A DNA stretch of 64,000 nt, taken from Escherichia coli. Lineage in GTDB: Bacteria; Pseudomonadota; Gammaproteobacteria; Enterobacterales; Enterobacteriaceae. The first letter of the stretch is position 1. Each line of letters begins with the position of its first letter. The translations under genes were made by a program, and so were the position numbers. The DNA lies in the NCBI RefSeq assembly GCF_046105845.1, contig NZ_CP151004.1; one strand, written 5' to 3'. This document shows positions 30,779-31,170 of the stretch, in pieces. The notes under the pieces were generated by a model. That model searched no databases. It saw nothing but the letters and a program-made list of their open reading frames with translations, and was not told the origin of the DNA.

Positions 30779-30905
30779 AGGGGCTTCATCCGAATTGCGC
30801 CATTGTTGCAATGGCGGTTTTTATTGTTTTTCACGACAGTAACCGCACCTACACTGTCATGACATTGCTCGCCCCTATGTGTAACAAATAACCACACTGT
30901 GAATG

Positions 30906-30919
30906 TTGTCTTTAATCAA
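30906..30919 (-). promoter_or_regulatory. Putative FNR site of the nrfA promoter
   Basis: Minus-strand TTGAT-TAAA-GACAA resembles TTGAT-N4-ATCAA, about 130 nt upstream of nrfA ATG. Confidence 0.45.
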
Positions 30920-31170
30920 TTGTAAGTGCATGTAAAATACCACTTTAGAGTTAGTCAGTATCTTCCTCTTTTTCAACAGCATGCATAACTGCATGTTCCT
31001 CAAAGAATTAATCAACTTTTGTTGCTGACCTTCAAAAATTACCCTGCCGTTTATTTGCACAATTCTACTTTTGCGTGATCTGTCGCCCAAATACTAAACA
31101 AAACTGCCAATACCCCTACATTTAACGCTTATGCCACATATTATTAACATCCTACAAGGAGAACAAAAGC

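Follow-up and report, generated by a model that had tools for sequence, protein, structure and literature searches.

The 392-bp interval between the divergent nrfA and acs genes is almost certainly the known nrfA-acs control region of Escherichia coli, identical to its K-12 counterpart and containing three sigma-70 promoters; an initial annotation of this DNA had called its FNR site correctly and its NarL/NarP site wrongly. All features flagged there were already known, in detail. The window considered here is a whole 64,000-nucleotide (64-kb) stretch of DNA, with positions counted from its first letter. Coordinates, identity to K-12, conservation, and motif statistics were computed, and binding and regulatory effects were taken from published papers. 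Regulator sites were sought by consensus scans combined with phylogenetic footprinting, in place of weight matrices.

The nrfA start codon occupies 30778..30776 on the minus strand and the acs start codon begins at 31171 on the plus strand, such that the measured gap (30779..31170) agrees with the earlier estimate of about 390 bp between divergent genes. Both gene identities were confirmed against NCBIfam: the left gene encodes the ammonia-forming cytochrome c nitrite reductase NrfA (871.6 bits versus a cutoff of 595) and the right gene encodes the acetate--CoA ligase Acs (1116.2 bits versus a cutoff of 657), with NrfB next beyond nrfA and ActP next beyond acs. The surroundings are ordinary E. 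coli chromosome, comprising phnP, fdhF, gltP, nrfG-A, acs-yjcH-actP, and soxRS, and extending to uvrA. A 792-bp query across the gap was matched in 5413 of 5426 complete E. coli genomes, with nrfA and acs as the flanking genes in RefSeq annotation among the matches listed. Every one of the 392 gap bases is identical to that of the K-12 strain DH5a, and the sole difference in a 461-bp comparison with this strain is at 31176, where acs codon 2 differs synonymously (AGT/AGC).

In K-12, the nrf genes are expressed from a single promoter, pnrf; FNR has one site there, centered at -41.5, and NarL and NarP share another at -74.5 (Godfrey et al. 2017, PMC5434802). This promoter also has three IHF and three Fis sites, of which IHF I and Fis I are repressive; Fis I overlaps the -10 element, and NarL/NarP push IHF off IHF I (PMC5434802). 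The +1 position of pnrf was located in the window from two independent textual statements in that paper. The p+102A substitution is described as changing the Arg codon AGG to AGA within the CsrA GGA motif of nrfA (PMC5434802); the corresponding codons in the window read ATG ACA AGG, with the third base of AGG at 30770, and equating p+102A with this base places the pnrf start at 30871. The O157:H7 promoter is described as differing from that of K-12 by one base, at -7 within the -10 hexamer (PMC5434802). When a 91-nt query carrying A-to-T at 30878, the predicted -7 position, was searched, 283 records were found at 99% identity or higher, and the 100% matches listed include O157:H7 strains. The presence of the -7 allele exactly where predicted independently confirms the start at 30871. 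The base at this position is C, and initiation with C has been reported for K-12 pnrf (PMC5434802).

30871, minus strand: pnrf transcription start (base C), from p+102A, cross-checked by the O157:H7 -7 allele
30878..30883, minus strand: pnrf -10 hexamer TACACA, at -12..-7 from 30871, K-12 type with A at -7, overlapped by Fis I

As a separate observation, PMC5434802 prints the O157:H7 -10 hexamer as TATACT, whereas placing T at -7 gives TACACT; this minor discrepancy is unexplained.

On the opposite side of the gap, the starts of acsP1 and acsP2 have been placed at -224 and -20 from the acs ATG, with the promoter sequences tabulated (PMC2759082). Transcription of acs is strictly CRP-dependent through acsP2, which has two CRP activator sites, the proximal one at -69.5, together with three Fis and three IHF sites. 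The acs-side features map as follows, with conservation given as mean identity to the window in the 24-genome alignment described below.

30947, plus strand: acsP1 transcription start, weak and FNR-repressed, 224 nt upstream of the acs ATG (PMC2759082)
30933..30938, plus strand: putative acsP1 -10-like hexamer TAAAAT, 9-14 bp upstream of the start, mean identity 0.97 across 24 genomes
31151, plus strand: acsP2 transcription start (base C), mapped by 5'RACE, 20 nt upstream of the acs ATG, major and CRP-dependent (PMC2759082)
31139..31144, plus strand: acsP2 -10 hexamer TATTAT, at -12..-7 from 31151, mean identity 0.99
31074..31089, plus strand: CRP I core CGTGATCTGTCGCCCA, center 31081.5, at -69.5 of acsP2, mean identity 0.92
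31021..31036, plus strand: probable CRP II, weak, overlapping an FNR-like match with two mismatches at 31022..31035, mean identity 0.71

The hexamer TAAAAT is assigned to acsP1 by its position and is best regarded as a candidate. The block TTGCGTGATCTG, which contains the left half-site of CRP I, is invariant in the 24 genomes. The distal CRP site of acsP2 (CRP II) we take to lie at -122.5, which corresponds to 31021..31036; this candidate matches the CRP consensus poorly and is conserved only in its right half, CTTCAAAA (31030..31037).

Conservation was assessed among species-representative genomes, in which a scan for NrfA yielded 34 loci, with acs divergent from nrfA in 23. The alignment consisted of 24 Escherichia, Citrobacter, Salmonella, and Intestinirhabdus regions, with identity measured to the window; these genomes are phylogenetically clustered, with many from Citrobacter, and counts drawn from them therefore overstate the number of independent observations. 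In Escherichia, the nrfA-acs gap measures 392-393 bp; Citrobacter, S. enterica subsp. arizonae, and Intestinirhabdus have a longer one, of 420-436 bp.

The two regulatory sites that govern pnrf both fall at their published distances from the start at 30871.

30906..30919, minus strand: FNR binding site TTGATTAAAGACAA, center 30912.5, at -41.5 of pnrf and -34.5 of acsP1
30938..30953, plus strand: NarL/NarP 7-2-7 site TACCACT-TT-AGAGTTA, center 30945.5, at -74.5 of pnrf, covering the acsP1 start

The plus strand at 30906..30919 reads TTGTCTTTAATCAA, equivalent to TTGATTAAAGACAA on the nrfA strand. The initial annotation had proposed the TTGAT-N4-GACAA motif here as a plausible FNR site, and the proposal was sound: its coordinates are right, and the motif center lies exactly at -41.5, which identifies it as the established pnrf site. 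Direct activation of the operon nrfABCDEFG by FNR, from a single site at -41.5 with ChIP-seq support, was independently listed by Myers et al. 2013 (PMC3688515). Gel shifts with FNR were positive at pnrf, for which the K-12 sequence is identical to that in the window, and pnrf activity was 5119 units versus 54 or 36 in fnr mutants, a roughly 100-fold loss (PMC5434802). Across the 24 genomes, 13 of the 14 positions are invariant; only 30910 varies, where the nrfA strand has either G or the consensus A. The mean identity of the site is 0.97 versus 0.82 for the whole gap. With respect to TTGAT-N4-ATCAA, the site has two mismatches, both in the right half, and TTG is present in both half-sites. 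Matches with up to two mismatches number 42 in 64 kb, versus 29.2 +/- 5.0 in shuffles, with about 0.18 predicted per 392 bp. Judged by pattern only, such a match is no rarer than expected by chance; the assignment follows from position, conservation, and published work, and the rarity of the pattern adds no support to it. A real FNR site had nonetheless been placed from sequence alone.

The abundance of FNR-like matches, a second one of which lies inside the nrfA-acs gap, is what could be said for the alternative that TTGAT-N4-GACAA is a chance match and that FNR acts elsewhere, for example at TTGCTGACCTTCAA (31022..31035). Such an arrangement is extremely improbable. It would leave the exact coincidence of the motif center with the published -41.5 unaccounted for, and the pnrf97 fragment (-87..+10, that is, 30958..30862) excludes 31022..31035, yet is FNR-bound and anaerobically induced (PMC5434802). 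Conservation points the same way, since the near-invariance of 30906..30919 is set against a mean identity of only 0.71 for 31021..31036.

The FNR site at 30906..30919 is accompanied by the 7-2-7 repeat, the center of which (30945.5) is exactly at -74.5 from 30871, identifying 30938..30953 as the published NarL/NarP site. TACCACT-TT-AGAGTTA is the only sequence in 64 kb that matches the consensus TACYYMTNNAKRRGTA with two or fewer mismatches, and it has two itself. Its 16 positions are each retained in 23 or more of the 24 genomes, with a mean identity of 0.99, and the repeat spans -9..+7 of acsP1. This is the true NarL/NarP site of pnrf. The initial annotation had instead suggested that TACCCCT heptamer-like sequences, such as that near 31113, may serve as NarL/NarP sites.

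31111..31117, plus strand: TACCCCT heptamer, at -40..-34 of acsP2, over its -35 region, and at -240..-246 from pnrf

Several lines of evidence, in addition to the mapping of the published site to 30938..30953, speak against this suggestion. The consensus TACYYMT occurs 30 times in 64 kb versus 26.3 +/- 5.3 times in shuffles, or about 0.16-0.18 times per 392 bp; TACCCCT is thus at chance frequency, and the bare pattern is insufficient for an assignment. No partner heptamer in the 7-2-7 arrangement was found for it among 64-kb matches with up to three mismatches, and its downstream partner position reads ATTTAAC, five mismatches from AKRRGTA. The pnrf53 fragment (-209..+131, that is, 31080..30741) holds all of the sequence needed for anaerobic and nitrite induction, and pnrf97 remains nitrite-inducible (PMC5434802); TACCCCT lies outside the former and still farther outside the latter. 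In the 24 genomes, the first T is kept in 4 and the A at the second position in 8, both being lost outside Escherichia, while CCCT is invariant and the mean identity of the heptamer is 0.76. Selection here is on CCCTACATTTAAC (-37..-25 of acsP2) rather than on a NarL heptamer, and a role for TACCCCT as a NarL/NarP site is improbable.

Single heptamers can serve as sites for NarL, though not for NarP. The sequence could accordingly be imagined as a functional single-heptamer NarL site through which nitrate or nitrite represses acsP2, coupling acetate scavenging to nitrate respiration. TACCCCT does match TACYYMT perfectly, a protein bound there would hinder RNA polymerase at acsP2, and its CCCT portion is the part found in all 24 genomes. 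This reading is very unlikely, however, given the chance-level count of the pattern, the missing inverted partner at 2-bp spacing, the poor retention of T and A within what appears to be a different conserved unit, and the position of the heptamer beyond the fragment that suffices to bring nrf under nitrite control. In the literature found, NarL is not reported as a direct regulator of acsP2, for which CRP, Fis, and IHF are named instead, and no account of NarL~P binding to this heptamer in vitro was encountered there. Isolated NarL heptamers are not to be trusted.

Scans for other regulators were likewise uninformative as patterns. The CRP consensus with up to three mismatches was observed 192 times versus 203 expected, the IHF consensus with up to one mismatch had no match within the gap, and the NsrR half-site consensus had one 1-mismatch match, at 30987..30997, which is at chance frequency; none of these scans discriminates on pattern alone. 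A generic sigma-70 scan of 30600..31350 returned no promoter-like sites, as is expected for activator-dependent promoters.

The initial annotation had further stated that anaerobic nitrite respiration and acetate scavenging share regulatory DNA. This applies mainly to pnrf and the weak acsP1 promoter, in line with the phrase "shared regulatory region" of nrfA and acsP1 in the title of Browning et al. 2002. The start of acsP2, the major acs promoter, is 280 bp away from that of pnrf, and CRP, Fis, and IHF govern it. The acsP1 promoter was totally repressed by FNR binding in vitro (PMC5434802). Since FNR is centered at -34.5 of acsP1, over its -35 region, bound FNR would be expected to occlude this promoter. 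A broader possibility is that the region works as an integrated bidirectional switch, so that FNR and NarL/NarP, bound on the nrf side, would exert substantial control over acs expression as a whole. The overlap of the FNR site with the acsP1 -35 region, the coverage of the acsP1 start by the 7-2-7 site, the FNR repression in vitro, and the activity of Fis and IHF on both the nrf and acs sides are all compatible with it. It is nevertheless improbable, because acsP1 is weak and acs depends strictly on CRP acting through acsP2; the same 2002 title also contains the words "independent regulation", and the pnrf module is kept upstream of nrfA in genomes without an adjacent acs.

Such genomes include Trabulsiella and Enterobacter sp. 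BIGb0383, in which no acs match was found within 2.5 kb upstream of nrfA. In both, the FNR site TTGATTAAAAACAA and a 7-2-7 repeat are still located upstream of nrfA, 33 bp apart, and an FNR-like site is also kept in Entomohabitans. The pnrf module travels with nrfA and not with acs.

Among characterized systems, K-12 is the closest: its FNR and NarL/NarP sites, both acs promoter starts, and CRP I (-69.5) can be placed on the window without adjustment. The O157:H7 (EHEC) pnrf has the same architecture and the same FNR and NarL/NarP sites; in contrast to the window, which has A at -7, it has T, is partly FNR-independent, and escapes Fis repression (PMC5434802). The K-12-type A at -7 leads to the expectation that pnrf in the window would depend strictly on FNR and be repressed by Fis in rich medium. 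Salmonella and Citrobacter share the divergent acs-nrfA arrangement, and their 7-2-7-to-FNR core, acsP2 core, and CRP I are nearly identical to those of the window. Their gap is longer through an insertion of about 37-40 bp upstream of the 7-2-7 site, as has been noted for S. Typhimurium (PMC5434802), and many of their FNR right halves read AACAA, whereas that in the window reads GACAA.

The E. coli nir promoter follows a similar logic, with FNR class II activation damped by nucleoid proteins and relieved by NarL/NarP. It has NarL/NarP, IHF, and Fis sites upstream. Its FNR site, at nirB, is listed at -41.5 (PMC3688515), and paper titles name a role for NarL in remodeling the nucleoprotein assembly at this promoter. 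Unlike nrfA-acs, nir is a separate locus without a divergent partner promoter.

The published mechanism holds unchanged for the mapped sites. Under anoxia, FNR bound to TTGATTAAAGACAA at -41.5 would recruit RNA polymerase in a class II manner to pnrf, a poor promoter with the -10 sequence TACACA. IHF and Fis would repress pnrf, with Fis I, located over the -10 element, shutting the promoter in rich medium. Phosphorylated NarL or NarP on 30938..30953 (-74.5) would displace IHF from IHF I, and this displacement would account for nitrite induction of pnrf. At the level of translation, CsrA would repress nrfA by binding the GGA motif beside the start codon. The rightward acsP1, placed back-to-back with pnrf, would be occluded by FNR and have its start covered by the NarL/NarP site. 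At the main acs promoter, acsP2, CRP would activate from -69.5 and from a second upstream site, with Fis and IHF counteracting it.

The 93-nt leader of the nrfA mRNA (30871..30779, minus strand) may contain an additional layer of control, as it is predicted to fold into two hairpins between the transcription start and the translation initiation region.

30831..30862, minus strand: candidate hairpin A, at +10..+41 of the mRNA, with an 11-bp stem, from a single-sequence fold, RNAalifold, and pair counts
30798..30816, minus strand: candidate hairpin B, CGCCAUUG-CAA-CAAUGGCG, at +56..+74, just upstream of the ribosome binding site, from folds and pair counts
30769..30791, minus strand: nrfA translation initiation, with putative ribosome binding site GGAUGA at 30791..30786, AUG at 30778..30776, and CsrA GGA at 30771..30769

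The designation of GGAUGA as the nrfA ribosome binding site is a prediction, consistent with the invariance of GGATGA in the alignment. As a single sequence, the leader folds at -27 kcal/mol; compared with shuffles, its z-score is just -1.4. RNAalifold applied to 23 sequences recovered both hairpins A and B. In 21 distinct sequences, the sense-strand helices were paired in 98.5% of cells, compared with 25-65% when partners were slid by 1-3 columns, and the value was 96.6% with Trabulsiella, Enterobacter, and Entomohabitans added. In this enlarged set, which also includes Escherichia, Citrobacter, Salmonella, and Intestinirhabdus, six pairs were changed on both sides, a number reached by only 2 of 500 shuffles; hairpin A has compensatory changes in C. 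sedlakii, C. amalonaticus, and Entomohabitans. On the opposite strand, the leader helices were paired in only 84.6% of cells. Nearly all of the variation is accommodated through G.U wobbles that are valid only in the nrfA mRNA, which points to selection on RNA structure. Support for a structured leader is moderate, coming from related sequences and coupled with a weak single-sequence z-score, and the proposal that the leader is a conserved, structured cis-regulatory RNA formed by hairpins A and B is put forward tentatively, as a possibility with somewhat less than even chances.

The role of the long, conserved nrfA leader has been called unclear (Godfrey et al. 2017, PMC5434802). No description of a structure within it turned up in a literature search. 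In Rfam, no family covers the nrfA leader, and nothing in the region scored above threshold. On the plus strand, 30747..30821 resembled MicA below threshold (E = 1.3), a hit that was set aside as a generic hairpin plus T-run. A terminator scan of the plus strand picked out CGCCATTG-TTG-CAATGGCG at 30798..30816, with a T-run after it; a plus-strand terminator was rejected as an explanation of hairpin B, given that pairing is better in the sense orientation (98.5% versus 84.6%) and that there is no plus-strand gene upstream.

The nrfA-acs region is a textbook example of how a bacterial promoter integrates signals: oxygen is sensed through FNR and nitrite or nitrate through NarL/NarP, with further inputs from nutrient quality through Fis and CsrA and, on the acs side, from carbon status through CRP. 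Confirmation of this known architecture in the window brings no new biology, and the structured nrfA leader is the only forward-looking element. If the leader is indeed structured, its hairpins could determine how stable the mRNA is, offer the GGA motifs beside them to CsrA, or control access to the ribosome binding site.

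The transcribed leader of nrfA, downstream of the nrf promoter (pnrf), contains two hairpins, both of which have been kept in seven genera. Compensatory changes were observed in these helices, along with wobble changes that fit the sense strand only, and 96.6-98.5% of cells are paired when the helices are read on the sense strand, versus 84.6% for the antisense reading. The leader hairpins are not covered by any Rfam family, and the role of the leader has been described as unclear in published work (Godfrey et al. 2017, PMC5434802). The hairpins and the other features compared among loci are as follows:

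30798..30862, - strand: nrfA 5′ leader hairpin pair (30862..30831 and 30816..30798)
Between 30965 and 30966: insertion of ~37-40 bp in other genomes (loci L004-L020 and others; alignment columns ~214-250)
30987..30997, - strand: candidate NsrR half-site AACATGCAGTT
31022..31035: FNR-like sequence TTGCTGACCTTCAA, two mismatches
~33130..33360: acs-yjcH spacer, compared with 22552..23022 of L036, the locus of E. coli strain FCI48

Upstream of pnrf, the candidate NsrR half-site, centered at approximately -121 relative to this promoter, differs at one position from the NsrR half-site consensus, AANATGCATTT; its ACA and GTTAT portions are kept in different genera. The title of Browning 2010 names an NsrR site upstream at pnrf. 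The FNR-like sequence lies in the same nrfA-acs gap as the established FNR site (30906..30919), and its conservation is limited to the right half, CTTCAAAA. It coincides with what is presumably the distal CRP site of acsP2, the major CRP-dependent acs promoter, at -122.5.

In contrast to Escherichia, the loci from Citrobacter, S. arizonae, and Intestinirhabdus carry the ~37-40 bp of extra sequence upstream of the NarL/NarP site, and many copies of this insertion include a GTGATC...GAC-like segment. An insertion in S. Typhimurium was mentioned by Godfrey et al. (PMC5434802). On the acs side, coordinate offsets place the acs-yjcH spacer of FCI48, the strain matching the promoter region best, at ~245 bp longer than that of the window, so E. 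coli strains differ in the length of this spacer.

Elsewhere in the 64 kb, the sole perfect match to the CRP consensus core, TGTGATATAGTTCACA (43380..43395, zero mismatches), was placed in the pdeC-yjcB intergenic region by offset from an annotated strain. Three Rfam matches scored above the gathering threshold:

2528..2608, - strand: naRNA4, a nucleoid-associated noncoding RNA (65 bits)
20151..20205, + strand: SECIS element within fdhF (87 bits)
40502..40642, + strand: sraL sRNA (153 bits)

At pnrf itself, the window carries the K-12-type A at position -7 (30878). The T allele at this position, which in O157:H7 renders nrf partly FNR-independent (PMC5434802), is present in 283 of the 5413 matching E. 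coli records (at least 99% identity to the allele query).
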